This document shows, piece by piece, positions 43,020-59,942 of a DNA stretch of 64,000 bases. The notes under the pieces are model-generated. The model did not search any database and was not told the DNA's origin. It saw nothing but the letters and a program-made list of their open reading frames with translations. Position 1 is the stretch's first letter, and each line of letters begins with the position of its first letter. The translations under genes were made by a program, and so were the position numbers. Where the stretch lies: sequence record PZ386973.1; one strand, 5' to 3'. This stretch comes from a phage.

Positions 43020-43253
43020 TTACGATTCCTTGAGCAAAGAAGCAAGTTCAGCATAGACTTTATCTAACTCAAAGCCGATGCGAAGAGACACGTTTGTTTT
43101 CCGTTGTTTAAGTAACCACTCGGATATGTTAGGGATGCCAGCTAGTCTAGCAGGAACCACCCTACATAGCTTTTCCGAAGTGTCGTAAACAGGAACTTTA
43201 CGTTCTTTTACAGGGAACTTCCTTGTTTCCCATTTTTTATTCTTCACTGTCAT
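43020..43253 (-). CDS. Hypothetical protein
   Basis: 77 aa from ATG 43253; overlaps helicase gene 3' end. Confidence 0.45.
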   Translation of the reverse strand: MTVKNKKWETRKFPVKERKVPVYDTSEKLCRVVPARLAGIPNISEWLLKQRKTNVSLRIGFELDKVYAELASLLKES

Positions 43254-46026
43254 TTCTAGCACCTAGCTCTGCCATTGCTTCATCATGCATATGTTTTTCC
43301 TCATCAGTCATAAACTTATATGGAATTGGCATACACTCGATTTTACAATAGGTTCTGTACCAGTCTACAATATTTTCAGTGTTCATATCCTTACCAATAC
43401 CCATCATACCAAGATACATTCTCGCATATTTTGGGTTAGCACTCTGACCTGTTTTAAGGAAGAAATCTTTCTTCTTACCTTTCAGAGCTTCTATGAATGG
43501 TTTGATAGTGATATTTGAACACTTCTTAATATCCTCCCAGAACATCTCGTGCATCTTATGGAAGAATGCAGCTCGATCATTCGGTTTATCCTTGATATAT
43601 TGTTCGACATGCTCAACTGTTACATCTTTAATAGACTCAAGATGATAATAGCGAACAAGAAGTAGTTTAGCTTCATACGCATCTGCATGGCGTGGAGCAC
43701 AATAATCAGGAGTTGAATACAAAATAGCTTTGATTCGCTCTTCCGTATACTCTTTTCCTGCACCTTCGATAGTTCCCCAGCTTTCACTGAAAATATCAAT
43801 AGTTGCACCCTGATCAAGCAAGTAATAACGTAAAGTACTAGTATAGTTCCTAGACTCCAGCTCCCTACGACGTGTGTATAATTGCTGTGCTAACTCCAGC
43901 CAACCTTCATCAATGTTATATTGTTCAGAGCCTGCGGAGAATCCACTCGTAGATTTATCAATAAAATAATAAATGTTCTGAGCGCCACGGTCGCGCCTGA
44001 TTGCTTGAAAACGCATGTTTGGCGCTTGATTACTGGTTCTAGTAATAACGAATACGTTATCAAAATAGTTGAAGTCAACACCACTCGTTACGGATGGACT
44101 ACATAATAAGCAATCAATTTGTTGATCAATTAGCTCATTAGTTGTATAATCCAGGATACGTCGAATATCTACATCAGACGTAGAATTTGAGTGAATTTCC
44201 TTAACTAACGCACCCGTATTACGACGCAATGCCATGCCCTTCTCATTCAGTTCATCCGGTCCACAGTCAGATACTAGGATAGATTTCTCACCCATCTCTA
44301 GGGAAGTCTGAAGTGCAACCCAAATACTGGATTCATCAGGAAACTCATAAGCATGAGCTTTTGATAGCATTTTACGGTGATGATTATAAAATGCAACCGG
44401 TTTATCAAACTCAATCAAAGAACCATATGCTTCAATTGTTTCTGCACTAATATCCCCATCAGATAATATAATGATTTTTGCAGTTGCAAGAATATCCCGA
44501 AGAACCTGAATACATTCACGACGTTGTTTAACAACCGGGGCGAATAATAGGTCATTCATTACAGCATCACATTCATCGATAAAGATTGCATCAATTTGAC
44601 CAATAAAACTCTTGAACTTATGCAAAGAGTGAATAGTTGTGGACATACGGTCAATAGCACCACGCTTAAAATTAAGCATATCTACAGACTTATCATATTG
44701 TCCTGCACTAAATTTCTTAGCATTTGAAGATACCAGTGCTCGAGTATTGGTAATTGCTAAGAAATTACCATTAATAACTCCTGAATCTAACCAACGCACA
44801 ACCGCCGTAGTTTTACCTGTACCTAGACTTGCTTTTACAAAAGTCATATAACCTTCTGGTGGTACAGTATTTAATTTCAAGAAGTTATCAGTCTCTAAAG
44901 AGTTAGTTTCTAGCTTTTTAAGTGGAATACCTTTTAAAACATCCGGTATATCACGTTTAGAATTATTAACAAACGCTTTCAGAGCCTGTTTACGACCATT
45001 ATTAAAGTAGTCTTGAATATTACGACTATTATCTTTAGTTGCAATATATTCTGATAAGGCTGGACGAATTTCTTTTTCTAGCCATGCAAAATCAACACCA
45101 TCCTCTAAAGCCCTGTGATAGAGTTTAGGAATAATACGTAGATACACTCCATCCTCAGCTTCTTCTAGTTCGCTGATAGTTTCTTCTACTTTATCAGAGG
45201 CAGCTTTTTTACCCTTAATTTGGTCGAGTAAAGAGTAGAACTCTTCTTTAAACTCACCTCTAGTTGTTTCATAGTCAACCAGATTATTGGGTAAATTTAC
45301 TTTAGAACCCTTAACAAATACCAGACGTGAAGCACCCTCCGCTTTAAACGGATCTACTATACCATCAGTAAATAAAGGATCTGCAAAATAATGGAGCTGT
45401 ACGGAAGAGTAATAAGCTAAGTCGGCAATATCAAAGCCATACTTTTGTCTACTACTTTCGTTGATAGATGTAAATAAGAATTTGATTTGACCCTGAGTTA
45501 CTTTAACATTAGATTCTAGTATTAAGTGCATTCGGATACCTGGTTTTAGCCCAGCCGAAGACGATGCATGAGCGATAAACCCTGCATCAAGAGGAAACAT
45601 ATCCTCACTAATACTATTTAACATTCTAATAATATGTCGAGCCATGCCAACAAGATCAAACTTGTTACAACCACCTGTATCTACAATACCATCCACGTCC
45701 ATTGCAATTATATGGCTTGGATTAGATACATTAAAGTTGCCCTTCTTACGTCGCACATTATTTTTAGGTGCAAGACATCGACCTCGTACCGCAACGATAT
45801 GAGGGTCAGACGTTAAACGTCTCATAAGAGGAAGCATTTCTACTAGGGTTTGAGGATCAACTTCATCAATTACATCAAACTTGAAGGGCATTGAAGCTGG
45901 TTTACCTTCAGGATGCTTTGAGGAAAATCTTTTAGCAAAAAGATAATCTTCTGCTTTAACTTCTCGCCAATTGCCTGTGGCTAAATCGCGATGAAATCCT
46001 GCATGACCTTGTAGGATTGAGAACAC
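43237..46026 (-). CDS. UL9-like SF2 helicase / putative replication origin-binding protein
   Basis: Walker A ASLGTGKTTAV, Walker B IFIDECDAV; GTG start at 46026 preceded by AGGAG (track start 46104 is TTG). Confidence 0.72.
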   Translation of the reverse strand: MFSILQGHAGFHRDLATGNWREVKAEDYLFAKRFSSKHPEGKPASMPFKFDVIDEVDPQTLVEMLPLMRRLTSDPHIVAVRGRCLAPKNNVRRKKGNFNVSNPSHIIAMDVDGIVDTGGCNKFDLVGMARHIIRMLNSISEDMFPLDAGFIAHASSSAGLKPGIRMHLILESNVKVTQGQIKFLFTSINESSRQKYGFDIADLAYYSSVQLHYFADPLFTDGIVDPFKAEGASRLVFVKGSKVNLPNNLVDYETTRGEFKEEFYSLLDQIKGKKAASDKVEETISELEEAEDGVYLRIIPKLYHRALEDGVDFAWLEKEIRPALSEYIATKDNSRNIQDYFNNGRKQALKAFVNNSKRDIPDVLKGIPLKKLETNSLETDNFLKLNTVPPEGYMTFVKASLGTGKTTAVVRWLDSGVINGNFLAITNTRALVSSNAKKFSAGQYDKSVDMLNFKRGAIDRMSTTIHSLHKFKSFIGQIDAIFIDECDAVMNDLLFAPVVKQRRECIQVLRDILATAKIIILSDGDISAETIEAYGSLIEFDKPVAFYNHHRKMLSKAHAYEFPDESSIWVALQTSLEMGEKSILVSDCGPDELNEKGMALRRNTGALVKEIHSNSTSDVDIRRILDYTTNELIDQQIDCLLCSPSVTSGVDFNYFDNVFVITRTSNQAPNMRFQAIRRDRGAQNIYYFIDKSTSGFSAGSEQYNIDEGWLELAQQLYTRRRELESRNYTSTLRYYLLDQGATIDIFSESWGTIEGAGKEYTEERIKAILYSTPDYCAPRHADAYEAKLLLVRYYHLESIKDVTVEHVEQYIKDKPNDRAAFFHKMHEMFWEDIKKCSNITIKPFIEALKGKKKDFFLKTGQSANPKYARMYLGMMGIGKDMNTENIVDWYRTYCKIECMPIPYKFMTDEEKHMHDEAMAELGARNDSEE

Positions 46027-46526
46027 AACAATACTCCTGTGTTGGAAATGAAATAAGTTTTCTTTAGGACTATTCAGAAAGAATAGAACAACTGTTACTG
46101 TCAATTTCTCAACAAATTAATCGCAAATACTGAAGTGGGGTGGCAACTTCCACTTTCACGCTGCGCTGCTGCCTCATTATACCGCACAAATCCTTGAGGA
46201 TGGCCGCTAAGCCAGATTTGCTCACCTAATGCTTCATATACTAGCTCATACTAGATGCAATATAACTTACAGAATCACGTCTCGGTAGTTTTTCACTCCT
46301 CCCATCTCACTTCACAACCACCTCATACTAGGTTGCTTCGAGGCCTTACCAGGGTTCCTATGGGACGCAGATCGCTAAGTATTCTATTAACTATTTGTTT
46401 AAAAACTAACACGTAACAGTTAAAACAACCCTTAATGGGGCAGCCTAACTGTTCCGTATCGCGGATTGTAAACAAGAAAAATTAGCAAAATCAATTTTTA
46501 CTAATGTCTCTCAATTCAATATAAAT

Positions 46527-46555
46527 ATTATATCAAGATTTTGGGCATCCTGCAA
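46527..46555 (-). promoter_or_regulatory. T5-type early promoter with ~500-nt leader before UL9-like helicase gene
   Basis: Minus strand TTGCAG - 17 bp - TATAAT then ATTTATATTGAATTGAGAGAC. Confidence 0.55.
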
Positions 46556-46595
46556 GTAAAATTTTCCGGATGGTGCTATCATTGGTCTTGAGTAC

Positions 46596-46623
46596 GGATA
46601 AAACCGAGCCAAAATGACTCGGT
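46596..46623 (-). terminator. Intrinsic terminator (minus strand) after paralog pair
   Basis: Minus strand ACCGAG-loop-CTCGGT followed by TTTTAT. Confidence 0.55.
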
Positions 46624-46649
46624 AATCAGAGTTCAGCTAATAAAAATCA

Positions 46650-47039
46650 TTAGTCATTTAGGCCAGGAACATAGATCCCAACACGGTTTAATTGTTCTTT
46701 AGCTTCTTTAAGAATATCTGGAGTGTACTCCCAAACATCATCTTCCACCTGTAAAAGATGGGGCGAACAACCATCATCCGGCACACGACATATGGCCAGA
46801 CCACGTGGATGGAACAAAGAGAAATTTAGGGCAACAATCAAGCCCATAGCAGACAATTCATTCCAATCCAATTCCCATTCCCCGGCATATCCAGACAGGA
46901 AAACACCAATGCAGGGATCATCTATTTGCTGCTCCGGAAAAGTGAAGGAGGCTTGTCTTACCCCCAACCAACGTTGTAGTAGCTTCTCCGCACGTCTCAC
47001 CAAACTAGGGTCAATCTGACGCCAATATACTTGTTCCAT
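46650..47039 (-). CDS. Hypothetical protein, paralog of 47049..47477
   Basis: 129 aa; shares ELxxMGLxxALNxxLFxP and C-terminal Y(V/M)(I/V)PGL with the adjacent gene. Confidence 0.6.
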   Translation of the reverse strand: MEQVYWRQIDPSLVRRAEKLLQRWLGVRQASFTFPEQQIDDPCIGVFLSGYAGEWELDWNELSAMGLIVALNFSLFHPRGLAICRVPDDGCSPHLLQVEDDVWEYTPDILKEAKEQLNRVGIYVPGLND

Positions 47040-47048
47040 TCTGCCCCC

Positions 47049-47477
47049 TTAAGCAGTTAAACCTGGGATCATATACCCGAAACGTCGAAGTTTCTGAATC
47101 CCCTCATTTACTTCTTCCGGTGAGTAAGACCAACCATAACGTTCATTAACCTGAAAACCAGGGGATTCACTAGTCTTATAGTTAACAACGAGGCGATGCT
47201 TAGCAGGCATAAACAGCTTATAGTTTAACGCAAAAACTAAGCCCATTTCATCTAACTCTTTCCAGCCAACAATTTCTTCAAGACCCTCCTCTACCTGAAC
47301 AATTAAACCAATACAGAGGGCCTCATCAATATCATCTTTAAAAGCAAAGGAGATTTCGTTATTCTCACACCATATTTTCAAGGAATTAATAGCCTCATTA
47401 TACAGGCTAGCCGGGAGAGTACGCCAAAAGTTAACCAAAATTGGGTTAGCTTCTTTAGAGAATACATTATTGAACAT
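47049..47477 (-). CDS. Hypothetical protein, paralog of 46650..47039
   Basis: 142 aa; same motif pattern as neighbour. Confidence 0.6.
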   Translation of the reverse strand: MFNNVFSKEANPILVNFWRTLPASLYNEAINSLKIWCENNEISFAFKDDIDEALCIGLIVQVEEGLEEIVGWKELDEMGLVFALNYKLFMPAKHRLVVNYKTSESPGFQVNERYGWSYSPEEVNEGIQKLRRFGYMIPGLTA

Positions 47478-58659: not shown

Positions 58660-59135
58660 TGTCGGTTTTCCACATTTACACAGATGGTGCTTGTAAGTCT
58701 AACCCAGGTCCAGGTGCTTGGGGTTTTATTGTCTATGATGATAACGACGATCGTTTAGGTTCTAAATCGGGTTATAGTCCTAAAACTACAAATAATGAGA
58801 TGGAACTCACAGCTATTGTAGAAGCTCTACGTTGGTCTGTTAAAAAAGATAATAGACCAATTGCTATCTATACTGACTCTGCTTATTGCAAAAATGGCAT
58901 GGAAAGTTGGATGTTTTCTTGGCAAAGGAAAGGCTGGAAGAAAGCAGATGGTGAAGTTCCTCTTAATCTAGAACTTTGGCAGGAAGCATTTAGATTAACA
59001 CAGCAGTATATTAACTTTCATAATACTAACCCTACCTTTATTAAGGTTAAAGGACATTCTGGTATTAGTGGTAATGAAGCTGTAGATGCCTTATGTAATA
59101 CAGTTATTACTGAAGCTGAAATGGCTGAGATGTAA
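58659..59135 (+). CDS. rnh: Ribonuclease H (RNase HI-like)
   Basis: HIYTDGACKSNPGPGAWG, TNNEMELTAIVEAL, IYTDSAY, GHSG..NE.VDALC catalytic DEDD pattern. Confidence 0.85.
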   Translation: MSVFHIYTDGACKSNPGPGAWGFIVYDDNDDRLGSKSGYSPKTTNNEMELTAIVEALRWSVKKDNRPIAIYTDSAYCKNGMESWMFSWQRKGWKKADGEVPLNLELWQEAFRLTQQYINFHNTNPTFIKVKGHSGISGNEAVDALCNTVITEAEMAEM

Positions 59136-59155
59136 TAAATAAATTAAAAATTCTC

Positions 59156-59184
59156 TTGCTTAAAGCTCTCTAATTTAGTATAAT
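59156..59184 (+). promoter_or_regulatory. T5-type early promoter
   Basis: TTGCTT - 17 bp - TATAAT upstream of 59212..59496 and NADAR gene. Confidence 0.6.
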
Positions 59185-59211
59185 ATTCGTATTGAAAGTG
59201 AGGAGGGCTTT

Positions 59212-59496
59212 ATGCGGATTTATAACTCAAATTCATTAGGATTTAAACCATTGAGAAAACGTGCACAATCACCTCGTCAAATAAGAAAGGCTAATATTGG
59301 TGAGCCAGAAACACGTCTTCCACCTCCTCCAGAACAACGTTTAGTTTATCTGGACGAAGAATTAGCTGAACGCGAAAGAAAAGCTCAAGAAGAGATTGAG
59401 CGTAAGAAAATGTGTACTGCTCCAGCCTACTCCAAGGGGGCTTATCAGTATATCTATACAGCCGAGGAGGCTAAAGATGCGGGGCGTAAAAAATGA
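59212..59496 (+). CDS. Hypothetical protein
   Basis: 94-aa ORF with GAGGAGG RBS and promoter 59156..59184. Confidence 0.5.
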   Translation: MRIYNSNSLGFKPLRKRAQSPRQIRKANIGEPETRLPPPPEQRLVYLDEELAERERKAQEEIERKKMCTAPAYSKGAYQYIYTAEEAKDAGRKK

Positions 59497-59942
59497 AGAT
59501 TACTGAATTTAAAGGTACTTATAGTTTCTTATCTAACTTTTATTTATCACCAATTACTTTCGAATATCTAAATGAGATATGGCATGCTGATACTGTAGAA
59601 CATGCCTTTCAGGCTATGAAATCCGACCAAAAAGATGATGTAGCTCATGTACTGCGCTCCCTAAGTGCAGGAGTTGCCAAACGTAGGGGACGTAAATTAA
59701 CTCTGCGCTCTGACTGGGATAAGGTAAAAGATGATGTAATGCTAGAGCTTTTACGGTTAAAGTTTGCAATCCCTGATTTGAGAGACAAACTGTTAGCAAC
59801 AAAAAATGCAACTTTGGTCGAAGGAAATACCTGGGGAGATACATATTGGGGTGTTTGCCGAGGCATCGGGGATAATACTTTAGGAGTTCTTTTGATGCAG
59901 GTAAGGTCTGAAATTAAAAGAAGCTTACAGTTAATAAATTAA
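59493..59942 (+). CDS. NADAR / YbiA-like (DUF1768) domain protein
   Basis: 149 aa; FLSNFY N-terminal motif and W..VKDDVM...LRxKF...LLATxNAxLVE...DxYWG...GxNxLGxLLMxxR pattern similar to E. coli YbiA as recalled. Confidence 0.72.
   Translation: MKITEFKGTYSFLSNFYLSPITFEYLNEIWHADTVEHAFQAMKSDQKDDVAHVLRSLSAGVAKRRGRKLTLRSDWDKVKDDVMLELLRLKFAIPDLRDKLLATKNATLVEGNTWGDTYWGVCRGIGDNTLGVLLMQVRSEIKRSLQLIN

Follow-up and report, generated by a model that had tools for sequence, protein, structure and literature searches.

The subject of this work is a 500-nt stretch without an evident gene in a phage DNA segment of 64,000 nt (sequence record PZ386973.1), which we refer to at its full length as the window. 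Judged by sequence, the source of this 64-kb window is a T5-like phage; the region we queried shares 99% identity with Salmonella phage ABTNLsp4 and has matches in hundreds of records of Tequintavirus and Epseptimavirus. The stretch in question (positions 46027-46526, minus strand), hereafter the leader, lies between a T5.107-type gene and a homologue of T5.108, the D2 helicase gene. An original prediction, made from the letters alone, had placed here an early promoter (46527..46555), about 500 nt with no credible open reading frame (ORF), and the AGGAG sequence and GTG start (46026) of a UL9-like helicase gene, and had proposed either a replication origin or a structured regulatory RNA. All of these landmarks are present: the downstream gene matches Pfam Herpes_ori_bp and phrog_3712, the leader holds only sense ORFs of 28 to 50 aa (none of them conserved in position in other lineages), and the GC profile reproduces the proposed AT-rich and GC-richer parts (28 to 34% at 46400-46549 versus 41 to 49% at 46100-46400). 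Our comparative analysis makes us confident that the leader is a conserved structured RNA, read from the minus strand, of about 430 nt and with several domains.

The signals around the leader place it, as far as sequence can tell, on the D2 transcript, as the 5' leader of a D2 mRNA made from the early promoter. An intrinsic terminator of the upstream gene precedes it and thereby sets it apart as the beginning of a separate transcription unit; this terminator is annotated at the homologous site in T5 (AY543070) and also in phages Lindwurm and KEY. The promoter spacer carries an extended -10 TG at 46535-46534, and transcription is predicted to start near 46520. With a match at only 3 of 6 positions in its -35 element, this promoter escaped a consensus scanner. 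The T5 GenBank record has both the terminator and the promoter annotated at homologous positions and leaves the leader itself blank. In most lineages, a TTGC[AT]..TA[TA]AAT motif precedes the helicase start by 487 to 525 nt. Greater distances are due to insertions and to longer leaders, and some of the distant lineages fail this regular expression. The helicase start position is kept in all lineages compared, and a scan of the leader found no intrinsic terminator between the promoter and the D2 start.

A leader of approximately 470 to 620 nt precedes the D2 homologue in T5 (Tequintavirus), Epseptimavirus, EC100, Erwinia phage KEY, a KEY-related metagenome contig, Pectobacterium phages DU_PP_V and My1, Klebsiella phage Sugarland, phage Eos, and Providencia phage PR1. 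The leader thus keeps its position and length in several genera of the Demerecviridae. A spacer that related phages do not conserve would have spoken against the original prediction; we found the spacer to be conserved, and between the window and the related locus L018 the leader (95.4% identity) even surpasses D2 (86.1%) and the upstream gene (68.5%). Between lineages, leader identity drops to 40 to 60%, and despite this divergence several blocks stay fixed (GAUACGGAACAGUU.GGCUGC, GAGAAGUGAU, CUUAGCGG, and AGUUGCCACC). The invariant loops and linkers are CUUAGCGG, ACGGAACAG, GAGAAGUGAU, and AGUUGCC; CUUAGCGG forms the only invariant columns among 15 sequences and is invariant in every enterobacterial-host lineage examined. 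The center of the leader exists in two unrelated-looking sequence versions, and that of the window is shared with the distant DU_PP_V and not with T5.

The evidence for a fold comes from compensatory base changes. Helices were defined on the window sequence and projected onto an unguided, plain MAFFT alignment of 12 phages (alignment A11), a procedure that misaligns domain B across distant lineages. In a model of 83 pairs, 79.0% of the cells were paired, compared with 42 to 48% when the partners were slid by 1 to 3 columns, and covariation was 0.403 versus 0.204 ± 0.013 in shuffles (0 of 500). When the extended rod and helix P3 were added, giving 121 pairs, the corresponding values were 76.8% versus 41 to 47% and 0.382 versus 0.201 ± 0.010 (again 0 of 500), with double changes at 69 pairs. 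The covariance analysis across related phages that the original prediction had suggested therefore came out above shuffles, and the structural half of its proposal, that the leader is a structured RNA, is upheld by many covarying helices together with the conserved position and length. Its mention of several short hairpins was correct in that hairpins are present, but it understated a large conserved structure. Moreover, G·U cells far outnumber A·C cells (196 versus 54), which indicates that the transcribed (minus) strand is the strand that folds and is not the pattern of a strand-neutral DNA palindrome.

Table 1. Predicted RNA elements of the leader, and the genes and signals around it, by position in the window
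Feature	Position	Strand	Sequence or parts	Basis or remark
P1, 5' hairpin of the transcript	46474..46512	minus		folding
Conserved unpaired block	46437..46460	minus	GAUACGGAACAGUUAGGCUGCCCC	near-invariant in alignments A1, A2, and A11
Rod P2, 5' arm	46379..46421	minus	AACUGUUAC-g-UGUU-AGUUUUUAAACAAAU-...-UAAU-.-GAAUAC	inverted repeats I1 and I8
P3, 5' strand	46365..46375	minus	GCG-au-CUGCGU	covariation
Domain A	46284..46364	minus	Hy 46364-60/46305-01, Hx 46336-32/46318-14, Hz 46299-96/46288-84	
Conserved linker between domains A and B	46274..46283	minus	GAGACGUGAU	GAGAAGUGAU in most lineages
Domain B, 93-nt three-way junction	46175..46267	minus	PK 46265-58/46184-77, PN 46257-52/46228-23, PM 46221-14/46193-86	
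PM loop	46202..46213	minus	GGCUUAGCGGCC, containing invariant CUUAGCGG	alignments
P3, 3' strand	46158..46166	minus	GCGCAG-CGU	covariation
PR hairpin	46133..46155	minus	AAGUGG/CCACUU, conserved loop AAGUUGCCACC	covariation
Rod P2, 3' arm	46090..46130	minus	GUAUUU-...-AUUA-AUUUGUUGAGAAAUU-GACA-GUAACAGUU	duplex test, covariation
PL hairpin	46070..46086	minus	CUAUUC-uuucu-GAAUAG	folding; Shine-Dalgarno ~30 nt further on
T5.107-type gene upstream of the leader	46650-47039	minus		sequence comparison
Intrinsic terminator of the upstream gene	46598..46623	minus	stem ACCGAG/CTCGGT, then TTTTAT	
T5-type early promoter	46527..46555	minus	TTGCAG 46555-46550, 17-nt spacer, TATAAT 46532-46527	
Shine-Dalgarno and start of the helicase gene	46038-46034, 46026-46024	minus	AGGAG, GTG	sequence
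D2 homologue, 929-aa ORF	43237..46026	minus		Pfam Herpes_ori_bp, phrog_3712

Mechanically, the most distinctive part of the predicted structure is rod P2, a long-range helix of about 40 bp that joins 46421 with 46090 and brackets the core. For this helix, a separate duplex test was performed in 12 lineages, in which the arms were set solely by their distance from two motifs and compared with 200 shuffles. The window duplex has 33 bp and -29.8 kcal/mol (z = -6.3, 0 of 200 shuffles). All 12 lineages form P2 with 19 to 33 bp, and in 10 of the 12 no shuffle out of 200 did as well (z = -3.3 to -7.3), Sugarland and Eos being weaker (z = -2.0 and -1.4, respectively). Compensatory changes in P2 are seen in T5, Epseptimavirus, DU_PP_V, and My1. 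A local hairpin, AACAGUUA/UAACUGUU, was dropped in favor of P2 because only P2 covaries.

Inside the rod, P2, P3, and the PR hairpin meet in a three-way junction, and P3 encloses domain A, the GAGACGUGAU linker, and domain B. P3 is paired in 88% of cells with double changes at 7 of its 9 pairs, reading CUGCGU/GCGCAG in the window, CUACAU/GUGUAG in locus L008, CUACAC/GUGUAG in DU_PP_V and My1, and CUGUGU/GCACAG in T5. The helices of domain A change their sequence in the same fashion, as Hy reads CCCAU/AUGGG in the window and GCCGU/ACGGC or UUCGU/GCGAA in other lineages, and Hx reads GCAAC/GUUGU in the window and GCUAU/AUAGC or ACUCU/AGAGU elsewhere; the sequence of domain A differs in the T5/Epseptimavirus type. 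PM, the helix of domain B that carries the invariant loop, is GCAAAUC/GAUUUGU in the window and CCACA/UGUGG, GUACA/UGUAC, AUAGAAUC/GGUUCUAU, or UCAGAAUC/GGUUCUGA in other lineages. The PR helix is GGGG/CCCC in L008, and its core is AAGG/CCUU in My1 and GGGG/CCCC in Eos; a comparison by eye pairs AUAUGA/UCAUAU of T5 with GUAUGA/UCAUAC of Epseptimavirus.

Two candidate tertiary contacts connect these parts. A kissing pair (K1) between GAGG of the Hx loop (46324-21) and CCUC of the PM loop (46199-96) shows double changes at all four pairs (GAGG/CCUC, AGAG/CUCU, and AAGG/CCUU). A pseudoknot (PK2) would join GGCUGC (46445-46440), which belongs to the conserved single-stranded block (ACGGAACAG..GGCUGC), with GCGGCC of the invariant loop; it is paired in 95.6% of cells, with one-sided C/U changes opposite G and no double changes, which makes it consistent with pairing and not proven.

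P1 has double changes at 7 of 16 pairs, and hairpins of different sequence occupy its position in DU_PP_V, My1, Sugarland, and Eos. The same holds for PL, at whose position other lineages have a hairpin of different sequence; it lacks a U-tract and is hence not an intrinsic terminator. A helix termed a-c' (GGAAC/GUUCU) occurs in the window type, T5, Sugarland, and Eos; it was kept out of the model because it is absent in KEY, L094, and My1 and overlaps PL. An AGGCC/GGCUU pairing with moderate support was left out as well.

For domain B, we built a covariance model that was seeded from window-type sequences only and iterated twice, to version R3. The single-lineage starting model (R1) gave weak matches to distant lineages and equally weak ones in random GC-rich bacterial DNA, a defect that was cured by R3. 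The R3 model finds one match per phage, always at the homologous place: in the window at 46175-46267, its sole match in the 64 kb (E = 2e-17), in My1 (9e-12), Sugarland (2e-10), PR1 (5e-9), and Eos (1e-6), and, outside the seed, in T5, KKP_3822, GEC_vB_N3, and L030, which are of the T5-type/Epseptimavirus kind (E ~7e-4). On the R3 alignment, which is fitted to the model, 93.8% of domain B cells are paired and each of the 22 pairs shows double changes; covariation reaches 0.892 compared with 0.261 in shuffles (0 of 500) and 0.09 to 0.18 when slid. On this sequence evidence, at least domain B, P2, P3, PR, and P1 are common to both versions of the leader. R1 and R2 also gave a weak second match at 46329-46432 (minus strand; E = 0.002 to 0.03) that is gone with R3; we attribute it to another copy of the CUUAGCG heptamer, which forms part of P3 (ACUUAGCGAUCUG), and consider an internal duplication improbable.

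In the collections scanned, the element is confined to the Demerecviridae. A pattern that combines motifs of the leader is found in 31 T5-like IMG/VR contigs, a single time in each, and in no other viral contig type, and the metagenome scan contributed 11 further loci. In 596 Gb of bacterial genomes, the pattern has four sites, a number compatible with a rough chance estimate, and none of R1, R2, and R3 has a match at these four sites. Among 80 records that match the Sugarland leader, 77 are at least 99% identical to it, nearly all of them Klebsiella phages. In Vibrio Demerecviridae (Achelous, JSF12, and relatives), the D2 homologue is likewise preceded by ~650 nt of conserved noncoding DNA (L042:700-1375, L085/L086:797-1472, and L045:370-1045). 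It contains numerous invariant blocks, shows compensatory changes at 30 predicted pairs, and is in part annotated as tiny hypothetical ORFs. The R3 model has no match in the Vibrio, Aeromonas, or PM135-like loci, so that homology with the enterobacterial RNA is not supported. A long leader seems to be missing from a more distant lineage, L081/L097, in which D2 identity is 41%.

Insertions and expansions cluster in the linker between P1 and the core. Directly after P1 (equivalent to ~46474 of the window), phages of the DT571/2 type carry an insertion of ~97 nt (L029:959-1055, also in L002, L016, and L040) that is flanked by repeated TTTTTCTT, resembling a target-site duplication, and holds a hairpin of its own, AUUUACGG...CCGUAAAU. 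This insertion may represent a miniature mobile element for which the P1-core linker is a tolerated site or a target. At this linker, Salmonella phage KKP_3822 has a poly-T/C expansion of ~25 nt (L101:~200-225), and GEC_vB_N3 (L103) has a 7-nt duplication, CAATCCG. By these comparisons, the linker is a hotspot for insertions and deletions while the core is left untouched.

Further upstream, an inserted free-standing gene for an HNH endonuclease separates the leader of Salmonella phage 3sent1 from the upstream gene (L003:1694-2146); the leader of this phage is intact from nt 11 onward, which means that the usual promoter may be displaced. The upstream gene of the window and its neighbor (46650-47039 and 47049-47477, both minus) are tandem paralogues that both belong to phrog_2502, where no function is assigned. 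Several GenBank records call the former a tail tube protein, a label that seems to be mistaken for a gene in an early-region context.

The leader does not correspond to a known RNA. A scan of 45500-47200 against Rfam 15 with E values up to 10 returned a single chance snoU13 match, inside the upstream gene, and a scan of eight related loci with E values up to 5 returned nothing relevant. Rfam 15 includes ROOL, GOLLD, HEARO, OLE, RNase P, tmRNA, group I and II introns, 6S, and riboswitches, and none of them matched the leader; ARAGORN found no tRNA or tmRNA. The literature we searched, the coverage of which is incomplete, contains no description of this RNA, which we regard as a candidate for a new family of large structured RNA.

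The gene that the leader precedes bears on all functional readings. The D2 homologue has a Herpes_ori_bp helicase core at residues 394-533, belongs to phrog_3712 ("replication origin binding"), and matches the NCBIfam plasmid replication family CyRepA1 below its curated cutoff (E = 5e-35). T5 D2 (T5.108) itself is annotated as a replication origin binding protein and has been described as a bipolar SF2 helicase and proposed as an initiation protein (Wong et al. 2013, PMC3632103). Residues 1-380 (window 44887-46026) have no relative in Pfam, NCBIfam, or PDB sequences by profile searches, and a single-sequence AlphaFold model of this part was too poor for use (predicted local distance difference test [pLDDT] score, 35). 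By eye, its motifs AMDVD and SSSAG..GIRMH tentatively recall archaeo-eukaryotic primases. The two types of leader go with two types of D2 N terminus: window-type RNA is found at loci with 93 to 100% N-terminal identity, including L018 (94%), and T5-type RNA in groups with 87 to 91%. GenBank annotation of D2 is inconsistent, as some records start the coding sequence ~120 nt inside the leader (L103:531, GEC_vB_N3), some label the product DNA primase, and some place up to three small hypothetical ORFs, on either strand, in the leader.

As to what the RNA does, we tentatively favor the possibility, which falls somewhat short of probable, that it acts in cis and, processed by RNase III, tunes the stability and translation of the D2 mRNA. 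In this scenario, the early promoter (46555-46527) would drive a folded 5' leader of the D2 mRNA, host RNase III would cut the long double-stranded rod P2, and cleavage would part the compact core RNA from the D2 coding portion. Processing would then determine how stable the D2 message is and how well it is translated, and with this how much initiator is made in the early phase of infection. A protein would contact the RNA at its invariant loops, with D2 itself as the obvious candidate, which would give feedback. The proposed cleavage is suggested by the length of the duplex and the proposed protein contact by the invariance of the loops. RNase III substrates are long duplexes, such as the early sites of T7 and the stems that enclose rRNAs, and P2 is a stem of at least ~20 bp formed by sequences flanking a folded core, as in RNase III precursors. 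Similar to the stems of 16S and 23S rRNA and T7 early mRNA, 19 to 33 contiguous-model bp flank the core, as a predicted duplex only; in contrast to rRNA processing stems, the RNA enclosed by P2 is not ribosomal. The structured element lies in the 5' untranslated region (UTR) of the D2 gene, as it does in cis-regulatory leaders. In this respect, it resembles the IncI-alpha/IncB repZ and IncFII repA leaders, which are long structured leaders before a replication-initiator gene and in which long-range or pseudoknot pairings may control initiator synthesis. These systems, however, use antisense RNA and a leader peptide, neither of which was found in the leader here, and there is no homology.

Several observations weigh against this cis-acting scenario. 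There is no conserved expression platform, as no terminator precedes the start and anti-Shine-Dalgarno pairings are lineage specific; no conserved pairing that involves the start codon was seen either. Pairings that would occlude the ribosome site (GCGAUAC/GUAUUGU and UCCU/AGGA, from RNAalifold in the T5 type) are absent in KEY, DU_PP_V, My1, and Sugarland, and the PR1 core lies ~100 nt further from the start codon, which makes direct occlusion of the ribosome site unlikely. The complexity of the RNA, with its junctions, candidate kissing loop, and candidate pseudoknot, is beyond the needs of most bacterial translational operators. The thermodynamic stability of the leader is only mildly unusual (z = -1.9); it is comparative sequence analysis, and not thermodynamics, that reveals the large conserved structure. 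Finally, in the Proteus PM135-like lineage, a perfect TTGACA-18-TATAAT promoter (L036:1437-1466) lies ~40 nt before the D2 start and downstream of ~500 nt of noncoding sequence; these ~500 nt carry a CCUUAGCGG hairpin of the CUUAGCGG type, but the covariance model does not confirm homology of this noncoding sequence. D2 may be transcribed independently of the upstream element in this lineage, as the promoter sequence suggests, and this hints that the upstream element need not be only a 5' UTR.

The other half of the original prediction, the replication origin, can be put in a form that makes use of the RNA. The leader RNA could be an origin-associated pre-primer, in the manner of ColE1 RNA II or of the T4 and T7 origin transcripts, the structure of which would favor persistence of an RNA-DNA hybrid within the AT-rich 3' part (~46027-46130); the hybrid would be processed and extended by the phage polymerase or would open the duplex for loading of D2. 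We consider this unlikely, albeit not to the point of neglecting it. As in ColE1, a strong promoter lies ~500 nt upstream; as with ColE1 RNA II and the T4 ori(uvsY) and T7 phi1.1 transcripts, a long transcript lies beside replication functions. For RNA II, the specific fold matters for function, and origin transcripts can double as mRNA. We found no sequence or Rfam relationship of the leader with these transcripts. A promoter scan, which was based on consensus matches only and gave counts at chance level, showed no promoter-like site for an RNA I-like antisense partner on the opposite strand of the leader. R-loop origins of T4 and T7 are not known to need an elaborate RNA fold, and the leader fold is far more elaborate than such transcripts need. 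The flanks are AT-rich, and throughout the core the RNA has more G than C, with a plus-strand GC skew down to -0.41; a similar skew is found in the flanking coding DNA. The leader contains no iterons or DnaA-box arrays, and its only direct repeats are two families of two copies each (15 nt, 87% identity; 11 nt, 91%). The former family (46240-46254/46317-46331) accounts for the CATACTAG-type direct repeats of the original prediction, which are present but amount to no more than a chance or structural coincidence; both copies fall in loops of the RNA model.

What makes the pre-primer attractive is its location. The leader adjoins the only initiator-type gene, the product of which matches Herpes_ori_bp and CyRepA1 and whose T5 counterpart is the proposed initiation protein mentioned above; the T5 leader lies at 59,048-59,544 of 121,750 bp, that is at 48.5 to 48.9% of the genome, and T5 origins have been reported near the center of the molecule (Davison, bioRxiv 10.1101/866236). 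"Near the center," however, spans the entire replication gene cluster.

A somewhat more doubtful alternative is that the core is released as a stable noncoding RNA and acts in trans as part of a ribonucleoprotein (RNP), either as a cofactor, guide, or scaffold of D2 or against a host target. Its size and complexity are typical of RNP RNAs, it has invariant loops and linkers, and cutting of rod P2 could release the core. Large RNAs that bind a neighboring enzyme are known from omega RNA (IscB) and from the noncoding RNAs of retrons and defense-associated reverse transcriptases (DRT), and by analogy with such guide or scaffold RNAs, the leader holds a fixed place next to the D2 homologue in all lineages examined, where the N-terminal 380 aa of D2 are without a recognized domain in Pfam and PDB searches. 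The RNA variant also cosegregates with the D2 N-terminal type, which may be mere linkage, and no terminator or separate promoter marks a stand-alone gene. Like ROOL, GOLLD, and HEARO/omega RNA, the leader is several hundred nucleotides long, has many helices, is phage borne, and lies beside a gene for a nucleic acid enzyme; unlike them, it has no Rfam 15 match at E values up to 10, has no tRNA cluster or IscB/TnpB neighbors, and is confined to the Demerecviridae in the scanned collections. Combining both alternatives, we speculate, with comparably little confidence, that the core is an RNA cofactor or pre-primer of D2 that selects or opens the T5 origin via an RNA-DNA hybrid or RNA-guided helicase loading. 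Such a role would explain the joint exchange of the variable domain of the RNA and the N terminus of D2 between phages.

It is very improbable that the region is an origin at the level of double-stranded DNA only, in which the conserved blocks would be protein sites on DNA and the RNA structure incidental. The region does adjoin an "origin-binding" gene, and it has three elements that resemble AACAGTT (46455-46447, 46421-46413 [inverted], and 46098-46090). Two of the three, however, change together as base pairs, being strands of P2 (CUGUUAC/GUAACAG, CUAUUAC/GUAAUAG, and GAUUAUUAUACAG/CUGUAUAAUAAUU), there is no iteron family in the leader, more than 60 pairs have compensatory changes, and the asymmetry between G·U and A·C cells indicates one strand. 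We give hardly any credence to the idea that the region is coding sequence, either decayed or overlooked by annotation, or what is left of a mobile element such as a homing endonuclease: small hypothetical ORFs stand in some GenBank records and 3sent1 has its HNH gene beside the leader, but no ORF is conserved in position or frame across lineages, one lineage is without any sense ORF of at least 25 aa, insertions and deletions are not multiples of three, and 3sent1 has the HNH gene on top of a leader that is itself intact.

Our findings turn an unannotated 500-bp gap into a testable object, a large RNA with a structure model, invariant loops, and a covariance model. GenBank records leave this region blank or fill it with small hypothetical ORFs, and genome annotations need to be corrected with respect to these spurious ORFs and to the D2 start codons that some records extend into the leader. 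The RNA is present in hundreds of T5-like phages, some of which are used for therapy and biocontrol. If it proves to be a free-standing RNP RNA, it would represent a new class of large structured RNA. T5 is a classical model phage for which, to our knowledge, neither the origin nor the mode of initiation has yet been defined at the level of sequence. If the RNA controls D2 or takes part in origin firing, the long-standing question of T5 replication would become directly approachable, and if it is a cofactor of the initiator, the initiation of replication in this classical model phage would be RNA dependent.

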